This document shows positions 19,364-44,236 of a stretch of 64,000 nucleotides of DNA, in pieces. The DNA comes from Methanomassiliicoccales archaeon. GTDB lineage: Archaea; Thermoplasmatota; Thermoplasmata; Methanomassiliicoccales; JACIVX01. Below the pieces are notes generated by a model. It made no database searches and had not been told where the DNA came from. It was given only the letters and a program-made list of their open reading frames with translations. Position 1 is the first letter of the stretch, and each line of letters opens with the position of its first letter. The stretch spans positions 10,899 through 74,898 of the forward strand of contig JAWCLO010000008.1 of the NCBI GenBank assembly GCA_038850735.1. Reading direction: 5' to 3'. The position numbers and the translations under genes were made by a program.

Positions 19364-19473
19364 CCCGACTTAGCTCAGTCTGGCTAGAGCGGCTGACTGT
19401 AGTGGGTTACCGGCTTGCCGGTTGCAAAGCCGCTGAGATCAGCAGGCCCCCGGTTCAAATCCGGGAGTCGGGA
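19364..19473 (+). tRNA. tRNA-Tyr (anticodon GTA) with a 35-nt intron at 37/38 (19403-19437)
   Basis: Acceptor CCCGACT/AGTCGGG with a C1-G72 pair and A73. D arm GCTC...GAGC. Anticodon stem GCTGA/TCAGC with loop CT-GTA-G[intron]A. T arm CCCGG-TTCAAAT-CCGGG. Confidence 0.85.
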
Positions 19474-37314: not shown

Positions 37315-37764
37315 TCATTCTTCTTTTCTGAAGAGATATCGCCTTGCGAGCTCATCAAAATTCTCAAGTTCACCAGCGCTCAAATCGAAGGAAATACTTC
37401 TCTCTGGAAGAAGATCGTATAATCTGCGTGCTTCTGCTCGCTTCGCCGAATATTTTATCAAAAGCCGTCCTACCCTGTCGAAATCTGCGTACGCATCGAA
37501 GCGCTCTACTGCAATTCTCGCATTGATATCCATCAGTTCCCTGTTTTTGGATCTGATCTCCAAGTTTAATTGCCTAAGCAGTAATTCCATATTTTTCTCG
37601 GAAATGGCACGAGTCCAATTCTCGACAGCTCTTTCCGCTACCTGCAAGCCAACAGTGAAGCACATATTTATACTTTCGATTTTAGATAACTTGCATTTTC
37701 TAGAAACTTGTTTGATAAGATCCTGCAATTCGTCATCAATTGGAATATCGACGGATGCCATCAT
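37315..37764 (-). CDS. Hypothetical protein, N-terminal RHH-like segment plus coiled coil (last gene of the DLP operon)
   Basis: VDIPIDDELQDLIKQVSRKCKLSKIESINMCF resembles a strand-helix-helix. GGGGTG RBS lies 12 nt upstream of the ATG. Confidence 0.5.
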   Translation of the reverse strand: MMASVDIPIDDELQDLIKQVSRKCKLSKIESINMCFTVGLQVAERAVENWTRAISEKNMELLLRQLNLEIRSKNRELMDINARIAVERFDAYADFDRVGRLLIKYSAKRAEARRLYDLLPERSISFDLSAGELENFDELARRYLFRKEE

Positions 37765-37782
37765 CTTATAGACACACCCCTT

Positions 37783-38205
37783 TCAAACGTCGCTGGATTT
37801 GTTTTCCAACACCATTCTCATTCTGTCTACGATCTTCTCAAGCATTTCAAGATGGTATTCTATTATTACTTCGTCGTTCGCATACGTAGCTCTAGCAGAA
37901 CGAATCTCTCGCAATTCATTTAAAGCGATATTAATAGATTTATCAAGTTCGGCTAATCTCATCCTCTTTCCTTCTAGAAATTCTTCTGGTGTAAAACTCG
38001 AAAATAGATTTGATCGATCACCTAAGATTTCTATTGCACCTGCCCTTAAGATAAAGTGTGGCGAAAGATCAAACGGAACGTGCATGCCTAACAAACTGTT
38101 GAACTTAGAAAATGTTTGAACATCCAGGAGAATGCTCACCACATCACCATATGAGCTTTCGCTGACCCTTTCTTTGCGTTTCCCGAAGAAGTTCAATCTC
38201 GCCAC
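37783..38205 (-). CDS. Hypothetical protein (about 136-140 aa), DLP operon
   Basis: ORF with a GGAGGTG motif at its 5' end. The start may be GTG at 38205 or TTG at 38193. No recognisable motif. Confidence 0.45.
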   Translation of the reverse strand: MARLNFFGKRKERVSESSYGDVVSILLDVQTFSKFNSLLGMHVPFDLSPHFILRAGAIEILGDRSNLFSSFTPEEFLEGKRMRLAELDKSINIALNELREIRSARATYANDEVIIEYHLEMLEKIVDRMRMVLENKSSDV

Positions 38206-38257
38206 ACCTCCGTGCTCTTCCCACTTGTGTACTTAAAAAAACGCGTCTGCAGAAACC

Positions 38258-38437
38258 CTACCAAAATAAATTCAAAATCCATCGAAATTCCTTATCCAGA
38301 TCCTCTACTATTTTATTAACACTATCAAGCAATCTATTGAATTCCTCCTCAACATCCTCTCCCGACAGGATTCTCTCCCGTGTCTCCTTGATTTTTCCAA
38401 TAATCAGTTCCCCAGCGGCTTCAACTACAGAGACCAT
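38258..38437 (-). CDS. Hypothetical small acidic helical protein (59 aa), DLP operon
   Basis: The ATG overlaps the upstream stop as TAATG. Confidence 0.4.
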   Translation of the reverse strand: MVSVVEAAGELIIGKIKETRERILSGEDVEEEFNRLLDSVNKIVEDLDKEFRWILNLFW

Positions 38438-38823
38438 TAGGTTCGCCTTGCCCAACCTTTGACGCAGTGAATGAATAATGCAAATGCCTTATCATTATGA
38501 TACGATGCCTGTGAATCATACTTTTTCTCCACATTGTTGGCACTAGCCATCTTTGAAATGCTGTTACAACCATTCTCTAACCCTACTGGACCCACGCATC
38601 GATAAGCCCCATCGTATAATTGATGCATGAGAACCATTCTAGGTGGAAATGGCCACAATCCGATTTCATAGTTCGTTTTCACATTTGACCATTGCTTGCA
38701 AAAGTGCTCATTATGTAAGTGGGAGAAATTTTGATGCATTCTAGACCTTGAAGACCTATTTACTTTTTCCTTGCCTTGATATTTCTCTACTTTCGCTACT
38801 CCAATCTGGAAGATCGATACCAT
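38437..38823 (-). CDS. Hypothetical protein (about 128 aa, His/Cys/Trp-rich), DLP operon
   Basis: The ATG lies 1 nt after the DLP stop (TAAtATG). No recognisable motif. Confidence 0.4.
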   Translation of the reverse strand: MVSIFQIGVAKVEKYQGKEKVNRSSRSRMHQNFSHLHNEHFCKQWSNVKTNYEIGLWPFPPRMVLMHQLYDGAYRCVGPVGLENGCNSISKMASANNVEKKYDSQASYHNDKAFALFIHCVKGWARRT

Positions 38824-38824
38824 A

Positions 38825-40657
38825 TTATCCACCTATGTTGAACTCTGAGTTCATAAAATGGAGCCTTTCGATCGCCTCTTTCACAGCCTCACGAAGTCCC
38901 GTCAATTCTTGAAGCTTCGAATTCTTTTCAGATTCAGCTTTTTGTTTGAACATCTCGACCAGTTCAATTGCTCCTTTCATAACGTCCAATGTCATTTGCA
39001 GCCTGTTGAGAATTTCACTTTTTATAAGCTTTGTGCCTTCACGAAGTCTGTACGCATAATCATAGCGCAATTTACCAGAGTACTTATCCATTTCATTTGT
39101 GACTGCATTGCTCACTCGCTTTCTGAGCGTACGTATGTAAAGCGGCTTCGGGAGAACAAATGGTATTTCCGCTGGAATTATACTTTCATAATCCAATAAT
39201 CTGACTTCGTCGAAGTATAATCTGCTCTTGCGGATTGGAAACCCCGATTTTTGGTAATCAGGTATCTCGATCTGAAAGATTCTTCCAATTTCTCTTCTGA
39301 ACTCGTTGATCACTTTTTCAAGTTCGCTTTCCAGAGAAGATGCGATTTCTTGAACTGTCCTTTGCAAGTCCTCTTCCAAGCAATCTAAAATTGGCCGAAT
39401 TTCATGCTCGATTGACGTTGTGAGAAATTCTTCCATCTTAGATAGTGATTCCTTTTTGCTGCATTTGCAGAATTCATTGTTGAAATAATCATCAATTCGC
39501 TCTAGCAAAACAGATGCTTTCTCGCCAATTTGCTGAGAGATCATTTTTTCCACTCTCCTCTCAGCCCGTTCACATTTAGCTAGAATGACGTGATCAACTT
39601 CGGAAATCTTGTCTTGAATCATTTCGATTTCCTGCTCAAGCCAGGCTATTTTACCTCGCACTTCATCAATCGGCTGCTGGAGCATTTTCAATTGAATTTC
39701 AATTGAAGTCAATAAATCTGAAGAAGTTCTCAGGGCTTTTCTCATAATTGATCTAGCAAATGTGATTCCTTTTTCGTTCAAAAGGAAATCTTTGAGACGA
39801 CCTGCGAAGTCTTTAAATCCGCTTTTTTCTAATTTATATTCGTCACCGTCACGAAAAGCCAAGAGGGCTAATCTTGAAGATACTGGATAAATTTCCAGGT
39901 CATTTCTGTTCAAGCGATCTGCAATCACAGAATTGGAATAAGCTATCGCCTCAGCGATGTCGTTTTCATCGATTAAATCAATTTTATTAATTACAATGAA
40001 GATCTTATCTATAATCCCGAGCATTTTCGAAAGAAAAATGATCTCCTCGTTACCAATTGGCGGTTCAACACCAGTGACAAATATTCCAGCGTCGATATTT
40101 GGTAGAAATCTATAGGTGCTACTAGTGCTACCATCATGGACAGAACCTATTCCTGGTGTGTCGACGAGCACCACACCTTGTTTTAAGAATTCATTGTTGA
40201 CGTAAACATGCACTTCAGTCACCCTCTTTTCATTGTTTGGGTTACCTTTTTCTGTGGTGAAAATTCCAAGATCATCAATAGGAATATCAACCGATTCTCC
40301 ATTTTCAAAAAACACTTTTGCCTGAGTTTCTTTCCCATAGAATAATTTTGTAACAACTGATGTGAGGGGCAATATGCCAGTTACCAAAACCTCAGAACCC
40401 AACAATGCATTAATCAATGTGGACTTGCCTCGTTTGAAACTCCCGAGCACCGCGAGGTGAAATCTCTCATTCTCAATATCTTCAATAATGGAATTGATGG
40501 ATGTTACCAGTGAGTTCCCGCCAATGTGTTCTGAAATCTTTACCATAAGGGAAAGTACATCGACGCAGGAATTCTTCCATTCGTTGAAATCCATAGAGCT
40601 TCTCGCAGAGTCCAAAGTCCAATGAGCTTTGCCGTTGAATGCACCACTTGAATCCAT
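38825..40657 (-). CDS. Dynamin-like GTPase (bacterial-DLP type)
   Basis: G1 GSFKRGKST, G2 LPLTS, G3 DTPGIG, G4 NKID, followed by about 350 aa of helical stalk. 610 aa. Confidence 0.8.
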   Translation of the reverse strand: MDSSGAFNGKAHWTLDSARSSMDFNEWKNSCVDVLSLMVKISEHIGGNSLVTSINSIIEDIENERFHLAVLGSFKRGKSTLINALLGSEVLVTGILPLTSVVTKLFYGKETQAKVFFENGESVDIPIDDLGIFTTEKGNPNNEKRVTEVHVYVNNEFLKQGVVLVDTPGIGSVHDGSTSSTYRFLPNIDAGIFVTGVEPPIGNEEIIFLSKMLGIIDKIFIVINKIDLIDENDIAEAIAYSNSVIADRLNRNDLEIYPVSSRLALLAFRDGDEYKLEKSGFKDFAGRLKDFLLNEKGITFARSIMRKALRTSSDLLTSIEIQLKMLQQPIDEVRGKIAWLEQEIEMIQDKISEVDHVILAKCERAERRVEKMISQQIGEKASVLLERIDDYFNNEFCKCSKKESLSKMEEFLTTSIEHEIRPILDCLEEDLQRTVQEIASSLESELEKVINEFRREIGRIFQIEIPDYQKSGFPIRKSRLYFDEVRLLDYESIIPAEIPFVLPKPLYIRTLRKRVSNAVTNEMDKYSGKLRYDYAYRLREGTKLIKSEILNRLQMTLDVMKGAIELVEMFKQKAESEKNSKLQELTGLREAVKEAIERLHFMNSEFNIGG

Positions 40658-40970
40658 AAGCTCACTCTCACCAGATGGTGCGATTGCAAAAAGTAGAAGC
40701 TATCAGCCCGCACCTAGCGGTTAAAGGTGAGCTTCATCACCTGTTAGGGCATTAGCAAAAGCTGTTATATATTAATTTCCCGAGAACCCCACTAAATCGA
40801 CGAGGCAATTTTGTAACCATCGTGAAAGGTTAGTTTTCGAAATGCAGCCCTCATCGATTTAAAATTTATCAATGCAATTTCTGCGAGGCTATACAATCAT
40901 AGATTCAGTAGCAACTTTACAGTTCACTTTCAAAATTCAATCAATTAACGATGGTAATTTATTCTAATTA

Positions 40971-42530
40971 TCAGAGTTTTTGCTCACAAAGAACGCGATC
41001 CAAATCCACTTCGTTATTCTTAGATGGAATGAGGATCTTCTGTTGTTCTAGTCTCAAAAAGTCATTAGGCCTTTTTGTGTGGACCGGAATGACTATCTCA
41101 GGATCTATTGCTTCAATGATTTTAAAAATATCATGCTGAGATGCATGACCTGATGCATGATAGCCAGGTTCGATTTCAAATACTGGTTGTTGCCCGTGAA
41201 GAGTTTCGCAGACTTTGAACCCTTTGATCTTCATTCTGAACATTTTCAGCCAATTTTTCAGCCTGACGAAATCTATTAGTTGATCCTCTGTATGAGCTTC
41301 ACTGCTCGAATAGATATAGGTCCCTCCATCAGGTCTAATATCGAGCAATCTGTTCATATCCCAGAACGAAAAGCAGACAATGAAACTCCCAGGATTAACC
41401 GCGATCTCCTCTGAATCTATCAAAGCATCTTCATATTTTTCAACGATTTTCTTTTCAAAGCCTTCAATCCTTTTTTTCAGATCTTGATATATGCGTATGC
41501 CTTCCAACTGATCACTTCCATGAACGCATGATAGGGCATCTAGGTAATACGCATCTTTCATTAGGACAACGAGTTCCCTGCCGTATTCGGAGGCAATTTT
41601 CTTAAACGTTTCTAGGCGCTCGAAATTGCGGGGCGAAAAGTCAGCAACAACTAAATCCTTTTCATCAGCAACGGCAGCTGCGCATTTTTCTCTAACGTCA
41701 TCTTCACTTACATCCTCACTTGTTGCATCGATGCGCGTGCCCTCGATTATGAGTGCGATGGGATGAAGCTTTTTAGCTTCGCTAATGAACTCCTTCGTCT
41801 TGTCAGCGAATCGACCATGCATTCTCAAATCTCCCGAATACACGATCCATCCCAGTGGTGTGTGTATAGCAAAGGCAGAGGCTCCGTAAATTGAATGGTC
41901 GACATCAAAATGCCTGAATTCAATGCTAATTTCAGAAGAATCAATGAAATCTGGAGGATATGAGCCTTTTTGCCAGGGGCAAGCAGTCAAGAACTCTTCA
42001 AGTTTTTTCGATATCGGAGCCGTAACAACCAGACTTCTCGTAAGAAACGGTTTTTTTCTTTCACTCACCAAAAGCCTTCCGTTGCAGCAACGTTTTCTCA
42101 TCCCAGAATACATGATCTCATGTTCGATTCGATGGCTGTCACAATCTCTCAGGCATTTCAAGATCGCATATGTCATTGGACTTCCAATTAGTGGAATTTC
42201 CATATTGAGCATGGGAATCATTCCTACGTGATCTAAATGAGCATGGGAGGCAAACACAGCATTTACTCTTAACTTTCGAAAATCAGAAATATCGATGTCC
42301 GCTGGGATAAGATCATCTCTATATACGTTGACTTTTGGCAACTGCCCAGTACAGAGATAATCATAGATACCTCTCCCAGTACGAGGCGCAAGGAATTCCT
42401 CATAATATTTTCCTAGTTTCTCATAATTTATGCCGAAATCTAAGAGTACGCCATAATCATCACATTCAAGAAAGATCTTGTTCCCACCTATCGTATCGCA
42501 TCCATCATAAACAGTTAACTTAACGCTCAA
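40971..42530 (-). CDS. beta-CASP family metallo-beta-lactamase ribonuclease (RNase J-like)
   Basis: SHAHLDH motif 2 and C-terminal HASGHAS ... VIPVHT motifs. 519 aa. Confidence 0.65.
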   Translation of the reverse strand: MSVKLTVYDGCDTIGGNKIFLECDDYGVLLDFGINYEKLGKYYEEFLAPRTGRGIYDYLCTGQLPKVNVYRDDLIPADIDISDFRKLRVNAVFASHAHLDHVGMIPMLNMEIPLIGSPMTYAILKCLRDCDSHRIEHEIMYSGMRKRCCNGRLLVSERKKPFLTRSLVVTAPISKKLEEFLTACPWQKGSYPPDFIDSSEISIEFRHFDVDHSIYGASAFAIHTPLGWIVYSGDLRMHGRFADKTKEFISEAKKLHPIALIIEGTRIDATSEDVSEDDVREKCAAAVADEKDLVVADFSPRNFERLETFKKIASEYGRELVVLMKDAYYLDALSCVHGSDQLEGIRIYQDLKKRIEGFEKKIVEKYEDALIDSEEIAVNPGSFIVCFSFWDMNRLLDIRPDGGTYIYSSSEAHTEDQLIDFVRLKNWLKMFRMKIKGFKVCETLHGQQPVFEIEPGYHASGHASQHDIFKIIEAIDPEIVIPVHTKRPNDFLRLEQQKILIPSKNNEVDLDRVLCEQKL

Positions 42531-42709: not shown

Positions 42710-43789
42710 CTACGCCACGATATGACCAGTAATAAGAATTGTTTTTCCGCACTTTGAGCACTTGTGATCTTTTGAAATATTTTTCTTTAATATCCCAAAG
42801 TTAGGAGACCTCTTTATAATAACGCTGCAACATTCCGCGCAATATGTATATTGATACCTTACGTCCGGAACATTCCCGAGATATACATATTCAATTCCAA
42901 CCATTTTGGCGATTTTGTATGCGTTTTCCAGTATTCTCAAATCGGTCGGTGGCTTATCATATTCATATGCCGGGAAATACCCTGTAAAGTACAGTGGAAT
43001 CGAGGTAACTCCAAACTTGATGTGATTATCGATGACTGTTAGGATGGAGCAGTCGTCGTCTTTTATACCAGTAACAAGAAGATTGTCAACTTCAACATGC
43101 AGAACAAGCTTTATTGATCGATAGATATTTCTCCACACGTATTCCTCGCTGATGCCACCACAGTATTTCTTATAGACTTCTCTGTCTCCCTTTACATCTA
43201 TCTTCATCGCGGATAACCCTGCATTTATTAGAGCATCAAGGGCTTGTTTGGTGATATAACCGTTCGAAACGTAGCGACAATATAAGTTTCGAGTTTTCGC
43301 CAAATCAAAAGTATCAAGAGTCCATTCTGTGAGTAGTGTTGGTTAATGAATACTCCCGCAAAGACCGTGTTCCCCTCTCAAAATAGTTGAATTAATAATG
43401 TCTTCTGGCGAAGTATATCTGTCGATCTCAGGGATAGGAGCTCTCCCTGAGACATAGTTTTGACACTTGGGGCATGCAAAATTACAAAACCGTGTTGAAA
43501 ACGTGAAAGCACTTGAATCAGGATAATAATGGTAAAAGGGTTTAATCTCAATCGGTCTACCTTCAACCGCGCTCAAATTTCCGTAATCCAAACTGAATAA
43601 CTTGCCATCAATATTCAATCTTGTCTGGCAGAATCCTTTCTCATTCAACTTGATTTTACACCGACGTTCGCATAACTCGCACCTAAGACTTTTTCTCCTG
43701 CCATTGTTGAAAAAATTAGATTCTTTTATGACGTCGCTATGGTGCTTACTTTGGCAGGGATCGGTGCTACGAGATTTCTCACATTTCAC
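42710..43789 (-). pseudogene. AmmeMemoRadiSam-type radical SAM enzyme interrupted by one in-frame TAA (43343-43345)
   Basis: N-terminal part carries CNFACPKC. The two ORFs share one frame: ...GSIH*PTLLTEWTLDTFDLAKTRNLY.... C-terminal CAEC...CSKCG zinc ribbon. Confidence 0.7.
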
Positions 43790-44125: not shown

Positions 44126-44236
44126 TGCGGGGGGAGGGATTTGAACCCTCGGACCCCTTCGGGACAGAATGTCTTCCGATAGCGATGCGCATTCGACTTA
44201 AGTCCTGCGCTTTTGGCCAAGCTTAGCTACCCCCGC
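44126..44236 (-). tRNA. tRNA-Leu (anticodon TAA) with a 26-nt intron at 37/38 (44171-44196)
   Basis: Acceptor GCGGGGG/CCCCCGC plus A73. 3-bp D stem. Anticodon stem CAGGA/TTCTG with loop CT-TAA-G[intron]A. Long variable arm. T arm GAGGG-TTCAAAT-CCCTC. Confidence 0.85.

Follow-up and report, generated by a model that had tools for sequence, protein, structure and literature searches.

The 64,000-nucleotide stretch of Methanomassiliicoccales DNA analysed here (the window; contig JAWCLO010000008.1, positions 10,899 to 74,898) carries on its minus strand an operon of five closely packed open reading frames (ORFs), in which the gene of a dynamin-like protein (DLP) is followed by ORF A and by the genes of three small proteins, B, C and D (Table 1). 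The layout, spacings and start sites of the five frames, first described in an initial annotation made from the letters of the sequence, were all found as given there, including a gap of 52 nucleotides (nt) between B and C, counted to the GTG start of C; the TTG start of C has better spacing from its Shine-Dalgarno (SD) sequence and agrees with the homologues. The gaps flanking the operon, put at about 310 and 440 nt, measure 313 nt on the upstream side and 439 nt on the downstream side. The upstream one, described as an AT-rich gap, exists but is not empty: it contains a fluoride riboswitch preceded by a TATA-like box, and the riboswitch, which that annotation had overlooked, is the decisive feature of the locus. 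Based on the riboswitch, its position, its family-wide link to DLP genes and the fact that B, C and D are conserved and linked to the DLP, we conclude with good confidence that DLP-B-C-D is a fluoride-inducible operon of the fluoride-toxicity response, leaving its effector role unspecified.

The leader matched the Rfam fluoride aptamer over model positions 1-64 of 64. Its 43.9 bits exceed the gathering score of 34, with an E-value of 5.5e-11 when the region alone is searched; in a search of the whole window it was the sole such match (E = 7e-9). The aptamer lies 29-30 nt before the AUG of DLP on the same strand, and this 64-nt riboswitch element is predicted to bind fluoride and to induce the genes behind it; through its place in the 5' leader it assigns the operon to the fluoride-toxicity response. 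The comparison covered three independent lineages of the locus: the window, L001/L002, and L004-L008/L010/L095, in which L095 belongs to the L004 lineage (L-numbers are labels of comparison loci throughout). Alignment of the 313-nt gap between these lineages revealed the box and then a ~90-nt near-invariant element that reaches the DLP start codon and has been kept although synonymous sites are saturated between the three lineages. The TATA-like box, located 16-29 nt upstream of the start of the riboswitch model, is almost unchanged in surrounding DNA that is only ~66-70% identical, and it is presumed to be the archaeal promoter of the operon. The aptamer structure is borne out by covariation. 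Among 14 instances from DLP loci, 98.9% of the cells of P1, P3 and the pseudoknot are paired, compared with 31-65% in slid controls, and compensatory changes occur at 6 of the 13 aptamer pairs. The pseudoknot, which joins the P1 loop to the 3' tail, is 100% paired in these instances, with both sides changed in 4 of its 6 pairs. A reading of the leader as a C/D-box small RNA, for which it has GUGAUGA and CUGA sequences, was dropped after the Rfam fluoride aptamer was found; matches to small nucleolar RNAs were far below threshold.

The 29-nt expression platform is conserved to the same degree as the aptamer. In minimum-free-energy and consensus folds the 3' strand of aptamer P1 (AAGCUCACC) pairs with GGUGAG...GUGAGCUU beside the AUG, and the P3 region pairs with the downstream CGCACC. 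The same two-helix alternative fold was found again in other archaeal leaders, where its strands covary (GGUGCG/CGCACC, GAUGCG/CGCAUC, GGUGCA/UGCACC). Bacterial relatives carry a classical terminator overlapping the pseudoknot strand instead of SD sequestration. From these folds we infer that the archaeal leader is a translational ON switch in which the SD sequence is sequestered when fluoride is lacking.

Searching genomes with the single DLP as query gave no matches, and relatives were found only with an alignment query; they include a distant set of 80 loci whose DLPs are ~30% identical, from Acidobacteriota, Desulfobacterota, Nitrospirota, Bacillota, Actinomycetota, Armatimonadota, Aquificales, Ignavibacteriales and archaea. 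Fluoride riboswitches at the Rfam gathering level stand directly upstream of the DLP or DLP operon in L003, L091, L093, L100, L057, L062 and L066. A covariance model built from these and run on all loci placed a riboswitch on the same strand and at most 450 nt upstream in 64 of the 80 distant loci, and farther upstream in 4; two loci have a riboswitch elsewhere in the locus only, two have no upstream sequence to examine, and in eight none was detected. The median distance, measured to the start of the tblastn match of the DLP, is 118 nt. When the 11 weakest upstream matches were re-scored with the curated model, 5 were confirmed, and riboswitch-DLP loci number about 55 of 78 (71%) on a conservative count and 68 of 78 (87%) on a liberal one.

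Genes found repeatedly beside the DLPs of this family encode Na+/H+ exchangers, major facilitator superfamily (MFS) transporters, MutS_V, CrcB, Usp, enolase and DUF6062 proteins. Na+/H+ antiporters are reportedly members of the fluoride-riboswitch regulon (Baker 2012). The genes crcB, enolase, Usp and mutS are published as fluoride-riboswitch-controlled (PMC5533749, PMC2864571, PMC11777429); MFS transporters and DUF6062 were not met in the published gene lists that were checked. The Cys-rich DUF6062 proteins (~220-240 amino acids, aa) are the commonest neighbours of the bacterial fluoride-DLPs, with 12 genes in 10 loci, L017 and L083 among them.

Single loci of the family show further arrangements. 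The Methanomassiliicoccales-like genome of L003 (2.4 Mb) has a compact fluoride island, in which four fluoride riboswitches inside 9 kb (L003 7917-16236) precede the DLP, a PPDK-like gene, a MutS_V pair and a Na+/H+ exchanger-Usp unit; a PYLIS element in mttB lies close to it. In L091 (3476-7136) an archaeal 23S rRNA gene follows immediately 3' of the riboswitch-DLP unit, which accounts for a 4.3-kb stretch without called genes. Prenyltransferase-like proteins of ~261 aa are encoded in L045, L093 and four other loci, mostly just 3' of bacterial fluoride-DLPs; in L093 the gene (264 aa, weak Pfam match) is on the other strand and upstream of the operon. The Thermovenabulum loci (L072/L081) have a MoxR-AAA and DUF58-like pair after the DLP.

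Table 1. Features of the fluoride-riboswitch DLP operon and its surroundings (positions in the window)
Feature	Position	Strand	Description
TATA/BRE (B recognition element)-like box, GAAATTAATATATA	40766-40779	minus	near-invariant in three lineages
Fluoride riboswitch aptamer (crcB motif, Rfam RF01734)	40687-40750	minus	full-length covariance-model match
Expression platform	40658-40686	minus	UUUUUG, anti-P3 CGCACC, SD-like GGUGAG / GUGAGCU right before AUG
DLP	38825-40657	minus	610 aa; Pfam Dynamin_N; dynamin-like GTPase of the BDLP/IniA class
ORF A	38437-38823	minus	128 aa from ATG; start 1 nt past the DLP stop (TAAtATG)
Protein B	38258-38437	minus	59 aa; TAATG overlap with ORF A
Protein C	37783-38196 (TTG, 137 aa) or 38205 (GTG, 140 aa)	minus	GGAGGTG upstream
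Protein D	37315-37764	minus	149 aa; 18-nt gap after C; GGGGTG ahead
Metallo-beta-lactamase/beta-CASP (RMMBL) gene	40971-42530	minus	519 aa; upstream of the operon
Radical-SAM gene, longer ORF	42710-43303	minus	197 aa
Radical-SAM gene, shorter ORF	43343-43789	minus	148 aa
tRNA match close to the operon	44126-44236	minus	~110 nt
tRNA match	19364-19473	plus	~110 nt

The DLP shows the motifs G1 GSFKRGKST, G3 DTPG and G4 NKID and matches Pfam Dynamin_N (PF00350) at E = 1.5e-25, with 90.6 bits against a cut-off of 27, in agreement with the complete dynamin-type G domain that had been ascribed to it. Compared with the PDB, the profile of its family matched Nostoc BDLP (8.9e-44, residues 50-507), IniA (1.1e-31), Campylobacter Cj-DLP1/2 and then mitofusins; PF21808, used to look for the helical neck and trunk of BDLP, scored 22.7 bits, under its cut-off of 28.3. 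The protein is 100% identical to a 'dynamin family protein' of a Methanomassiliicoccales archaeon at NCBI. A conserved segment, SRxYFD...P.ELP..LPK..[FY]RR, could by its sequence be the membrane-binding tip. The operon encodes one Dynamin_N protein only, and a GTPase domain is absent from A-D. As the DLP has one G domain and stands alone in the operon, the arrangement fits neither a tandem or fused pair nor the Eleos layout, as had been noted before.

Purifying selection shows B, C and D to be real genes. Between the three lineages protein identity is 63-69% for B, 41-49% for C and 54-62% for D, compared with 52-62% for the DLP. Ratios of nonsynonymous to synonymous substitution (dN/dS), taken on close pairs (closer fragments of the locus are L099 and L009), are 0.12 for B (against L099), 0.38 for C and 0.25 for D; polymorphism within lineages was too low to be of use. 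Neither these proteins nor the product of ORF A have a match in Pfam, NCBIfam or PADLOC, so that the small partners are indeed as unrecognisable as first supposed, and the NCBI annotation of a Methanomassiliicoccales metagenome-assembled genome (MAG) lists B, C and D as hypothetical proteins and leaves ORF A uncalled. The acidic protein B, apparently helical to judge by its sequence pattern, has a conserved N-terminus, MVS[VI][VI]EAAG, and an aromatic C-terminus (EFRWILNLFW). Protein C has a variable N-terminus, a conserved P-x-D-[LI]-S...G-A segment and a helical hairpin at its C-terminus; its AlphaFold2 model is of low confidence (predicted local distance difference test score, pLDDT, 53) and too poor for a fold search. 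The model of D (pLDDT 70.6) is all-helical beyond an unstructured first 10 residues and includes a long helix, and the C-terminus of D carries a conserved D[LI]SxGE...RYLF[RK] motif.

The N-terminus of D, called ribbon-helix-helix (RHH)-like in the initial annotation, drew consistent RHH-type matches, none of them significant. All weak sequence and fold matches of its first 45 residues are to RHH proteins: Pfam RHH_1, matched by 2 of 21 members with E = 0.0097 at best, PSK_trans_fac in some members, and PutA-RHH and VapB26 in the PDB at E = 0.24-0.75. The fold search of D against the PDB gave nothing significant; the top Foldseek matches were again RHH proteins (CopG, Arc, VapB, TacA) at E = 2-10, for a monomer model that cannot form the dimeric sheet. 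By inspection C has a strand-helix-helix pattern like that of D; paralogy of C and D was ruled out (hhalign probability 2%).

The whole neighbourhood is syntenic in the three lineages, so that linkage of the DLP and its partners there proves little on its own. Outside these lineages, word-indexed searches detected neither C nor D. A profile search with D, run exhaustively with HMMER, recovered 20 family representatives; the more distant, full-length homologues number 17. Of these, the one with readable context, P0136 (loci L100/L101), belongs to an operon of the order DLP (652 aa), a 38-aa frame, B, C and D between different flanks (enolase, MFS, HxlR), with a C homologue at E = 2e-68 and a homologue of B, a protein present in a subset of loci. 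In L092-L094, whose DLP is 33% identical, the order is Na+/H+ exchanger-Usp-C-D-DLP-membrane protein; stop and start codons there overlap or lie side by side, and the C homologues match at E = 1.6e-9. In bacterial L017 (1690-7752) enolase, two DUF6062 genes, a D homologue, a phosphoesterase-like gene and the DLP form one packed operon; a 125-aa protein encoded there was ruled out as a C homologue (probability 0.2%). The proposed association of DLP and partners is thus seen in other contexts and orders too, D homologues adjoining the DLP in L100, L092-L094 and L017 and C homologues doing so in L100 and L092-L094. C and D stand beside the DLP also where loci are not syntenic and the gene order is permuted, which indicates a functional module rather than just inherited synteny, and their occurrence only beside the DLP in every locus with readable context suggests a dedicated partnership. 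The membrane protein of L092 (4238-4873), a multi-pass protein of 211 aa with no Pfam family, begins 34 nt after the DLP in a locus in which B is absent, and it may be an alternative membrane partner.

ORF A differs from the other small frames. It is open in the three lineages for 128, 130 and 120 codons and always begins 1 nt past the DLP stop, with a chance probability of such openness of ~1e-4 to 1e-3 per lineage, and the other frames hold 6-12 stops. Its three products show no similarity at the protein or DNA level, and homology among them was ruled out (BLASTP E = 4; permutation P = 0.06-0.5). The claim that all small ORFs are coding therefore held for B, C and D, which are conserved, and failed for ORF A, which lacks sequence conservation, and three conserved partners remain of the four first counted. 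The TAAnATG junction between DLP and ORF A is conserved, and the end of ORF A meets the start of B. Most likely ORF A is a translational-coupling frame that brings ribosomes from DLP to B, a role that would explain selection on openness without selection on sequence. That it encodes instead a real small protein evolving at extreme speed, such as a lineage-specific modulator, we think unlikely. In favour of a protein, every lineage keeps the frame open, an SD-like GGTGGA precedes it and a close pair shows a dN/dS of 0.45 with no indels, but similarity is undetectable where the DLPs are 52-62% identical, the amino-acid composition is random-like with a codon score at the bottom of the genic range, and the slot holds only 38 codons in L100 and is gone where C-D precede the DLP. 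As a coupling frame, ORF A would be a clean natural case of a reading frame maintained without sequence constraint.

For the operon as a whole we propose the following course. Transcription would begin just 3' of the TATA-like box and yield a leader carrying the crcB-motif fluoride aptamer. When fluoride is absent, the 3' strand of P1 would pair with the GGUGAG/GUGAGCU SD sequence and the start, and P3 with CGCACC, blocking initiation at the DLP; fluoride with Mg2+ would fix P1, P3 and the pseudoknot, so that the ribosome-binding site is freed and the DLP translated. The later cistrons would follow by close coupling, ORF A carrying ribosomes from DLP to B and C and D using SD sequences of their own. 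Proteins B, C and D, predicted to be soluble, helical and specific to this DLP lineage, the latter two with RHH-like N-termini and coiled coils, would probably form a complex with the GTPase or regulate it. IniA, which belongs to the stress-induced operon iniBAC together with a small non-DLP partner, and DynA are both implicated in membrane maintenance under stress. By analogy with these two, the likeliest effector role would be protection or repair of the cytoplasmic membrane under stress from fluoride or hydrogen fluoride, and membrane maintenance under fluoride is our leading guess for the DLP. B, C and D are lineage-specific accessories that may act in a complex with the DLP or, in the case of C and D, as RHH regulators, roles that are compatible with each other.

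Several observations weigh against this reading. Eight of the 80 distant DLP loci are without a detectable fluoride riboswitch. L003 and L091, archaeal relatives that bear the riboswitch, are without B, C and D, and hidden Markov models of the three proteins found nothing in the 80 distant loci except the D-like protein in L017; a common partner of these 80 DLPs was not found either. The core function therefore does not depend on the partners. None of the five proteins contains a transmembrane or strongly hydrophobic stretch, so that action at the membrane is argued only by analogy. The single-sequence fold of the leader has a z-score of just -1.4, and the OFF structure therefore rests on comparative evidence. 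Lastly, the outward residues of the putative RHH strand of D are by inspection often acidic, which is atypical for DNA-binding RHH proteins. The riboswitch-less relatives comprise L088 and L027 (Thaumarchaeota and an unclassified archaeon) and six bacterial loci, and they may be a differently regulated subgroup.

The flanks of the operon consist of URO-D, DUF7479, radical-SAM, metallo-beta-lactamase/beta-CASP and GATase genes whose synteny is kept between lineages. The RMMBL gene upstream is syntenic in all three lineages and ~65% identical, as poorly conserved as the DLP block; the downstream URO-D, DUF7479 and radical-SAM genes are 88-97% identical. A disrupted gene and a tRNA had been noted nearby, and both were found. 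The radical-SAM gene, split into two ORFs here and fragmented in L001 too, is whole (355 aa) in L004 (4006-5073), and the split could be a pseudogene or an assembly error of the MAG. The two tRNA matches, scoring 45-56 bits in Rfam and missed by ARAGORN, are probably intron-containing archaeal tRNAs.

Other readings of the genes under the riboswitch were considered. C and D might be RHH transcription factors that mainly relay the fluoride signal to other genes or regulate the operon itself, instead of acting physically with the DLP, which is compatible with a fluoride-inducible operon. The consistency of the weak matches of the first 45 residues of D (CopG, Arc, VapB, TacA, RHH_1, PSK_trans_fac, PutA-RHH, VapB26) and the D-like strand-helix-helix pattern seen by inspection in C speak for it. 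We nevertheless hold it as a possible but doubtful role, since the matches never reach significance, the strand positions that would contact DNA are variable and often acidic, and the confinement of C and D to the side of the DLP points to a dedicated partnership.

Rather improbable, and weaker than a membrane role, is compensatory expression, according to which the DLP is itself a phosphoryl-transfer enzyme sensitive to fluoride through GDP-MgFx trapping and, like enolase or pyrophosphatase, is overproduced to make up for activity lost under fluoride. That riboswitches drive additional copies of fluoride-inhibited enzymes is established (PMC5533749, PMC11777429), and enolase and PPDK genes with riboswitches of their own lie beside the DLP. 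Against this, neither the window nor the related loci showed a constitutive DLP paralogue, and the idea offers no explanation for B, C and D as dedicated partners. We also know of no housekeeping need for a DLP in these organisms, which counts against such compensation.

A defence function was suggested initially. Eleos is defined by two consecutive DLP genes (LeoA and LeoBC, or LeoB and LeoC) and enriched in defence islands, and phage protection has been described for DynA and for the LeoA/LeoBC operon (bioRxiv 10.1101/2022.05.11.491447). The DLP has weak PADLOC matches to LeoBC (5.5e-20, 70 bits) and LeoA (4.8e-19, 66.8 bits), and the DLP block (41-66% protein identity) is diverging faster than most flanking genes (65-97%), which is compatible with weak constraint. 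That the DLP and its small partners are an anti-virus module related to Eleos ('Dynamins'), sensing infection and remodelling or protecting the membrane, is nonetheless highly improbable, as there is one DLP here and not two, the PADLOC scores appear to reflect generic dynamin similarity, the neighbours of the operon are conserved housekeeping genes and not the defence island first supposed, PADLOC finds no system, and a fluoride riboswitch stands ahead of the DLP here and family-wide. The NCBIfam model LeoA/HP0731 scores 24.8 bits on the DLP against a cut-off of 325. Matches to pVip were seen only for the radical-SAM protein, which is 88-89% conserved between lineages, and are read as generic radical-SAM similarity.

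To our knowledge the roles of prokaryotic DLPs are largely unresolved and archaeal DLPs essentially unstudied. A ligand-specific switch before a whole DLP family provides a concrete inducing condition, fluoride, and extends the fluoride 'super-regulon' past exporters and fluoride-inhibited enzymes to a mechanochemical GTPase with lineage-specific partners. A DLP in this regulon suggests that fluoride damages a structure, membrane or nucleoid, that requires active remodelling. More speculatively, the family of DLPs of ~585-650 aa might form a dedicated effector arm of the fluoride response in bacteria and archaea, with a GTPase cycle or assembly modulated by fluoride through GDP-MgFx trapping of G-domain dimers, and in some lineages a complex with C and D (and B) that protects membrane or nucleoid; if this tentative view were true, fluoride would be the first defined physiological inducer of a prokaryotic dynamin. 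The hypothesis is testable, as the riboswitch-DLP unit or the same family occurs in cultured bacteria (Desulfacinum hydrothermale DSM 13146, Hippea, Caldicellulosiruptor, Caldanaerobacter).

Fluoride riboswitches and bacterial DLPs are each known separately; a DLP with RHH-like, coiled-coil partners as riboswitch cargo is apparently undescribed. Archaeal fluoride riboswitches appear to be discussed for Thermococcus in PMC4247193. Our literature search found no paper pairing dynamin with a fluoride riboswitch, the original gene lists (Baker et al. 2012) being outside that search; 'GTPase' and fluoride riboswitch co-occurred only incidentally, and earlier notice of a 'GTPase' class is possible.

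With Eleos the operon shares a dynamin-family GTPase and weak PADLOC similarity, and it differs in its single DLP with non-DLP partners, its housekeeping surroundings and its riboswitch control. Like the RHH antitoxins among the RHH proteins (CopG/Arc/MetJ, VapB, ParD), D, and by its pattern C, appear to begin with a strand-helix-helix that has the length of an RHH domain and precedes an extension, but no match is significant, the C-terminal domains (long coiled coil, RYLF[RK]) match nothing known, and a toxin partner is lacking. With Nostoc BDLP, IniA and DynA the DLP shares the G-domain motifs, and by profile alignment its helical regions may be homologous to theirs. It differs from this class in standing alone rather than in a tandem or fused pair, in having no evident hydrophobic paddle or transmembrane segment, and in being presumably induced through a fluoride-sensing RNA; B, C and D are unrelated to the IniB or IniC of iniBAC. 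Pairs such as DynA, DynA/DynB, IniA/IniC and Cj-DLP1/2 have little counterpart in the family, as just 4 of the 80 related loci show two DLP matches. The closest likeness in regulation is to the fluoride regulon operons (crcB/eriC-F units; ppaC-uspA-eno-gpmA-crcB of Enterobacter cloacae FRM), which have the same aptamer class in the 5' leader on the coding strand, an ON-switch logic that is expected here as well, and the same companion genes as related DLP loci (CrcB, enolase, Usp, Na+/H+ exchanger, MutS-like). Unlike terminator-based fluoride riboswitches, the archaeal platform appears to sequester the SD sequence, and the cargo is neither an exporter nor a fluoride-inhibited enzyme but a DLP with three uncharacterised small proteins.

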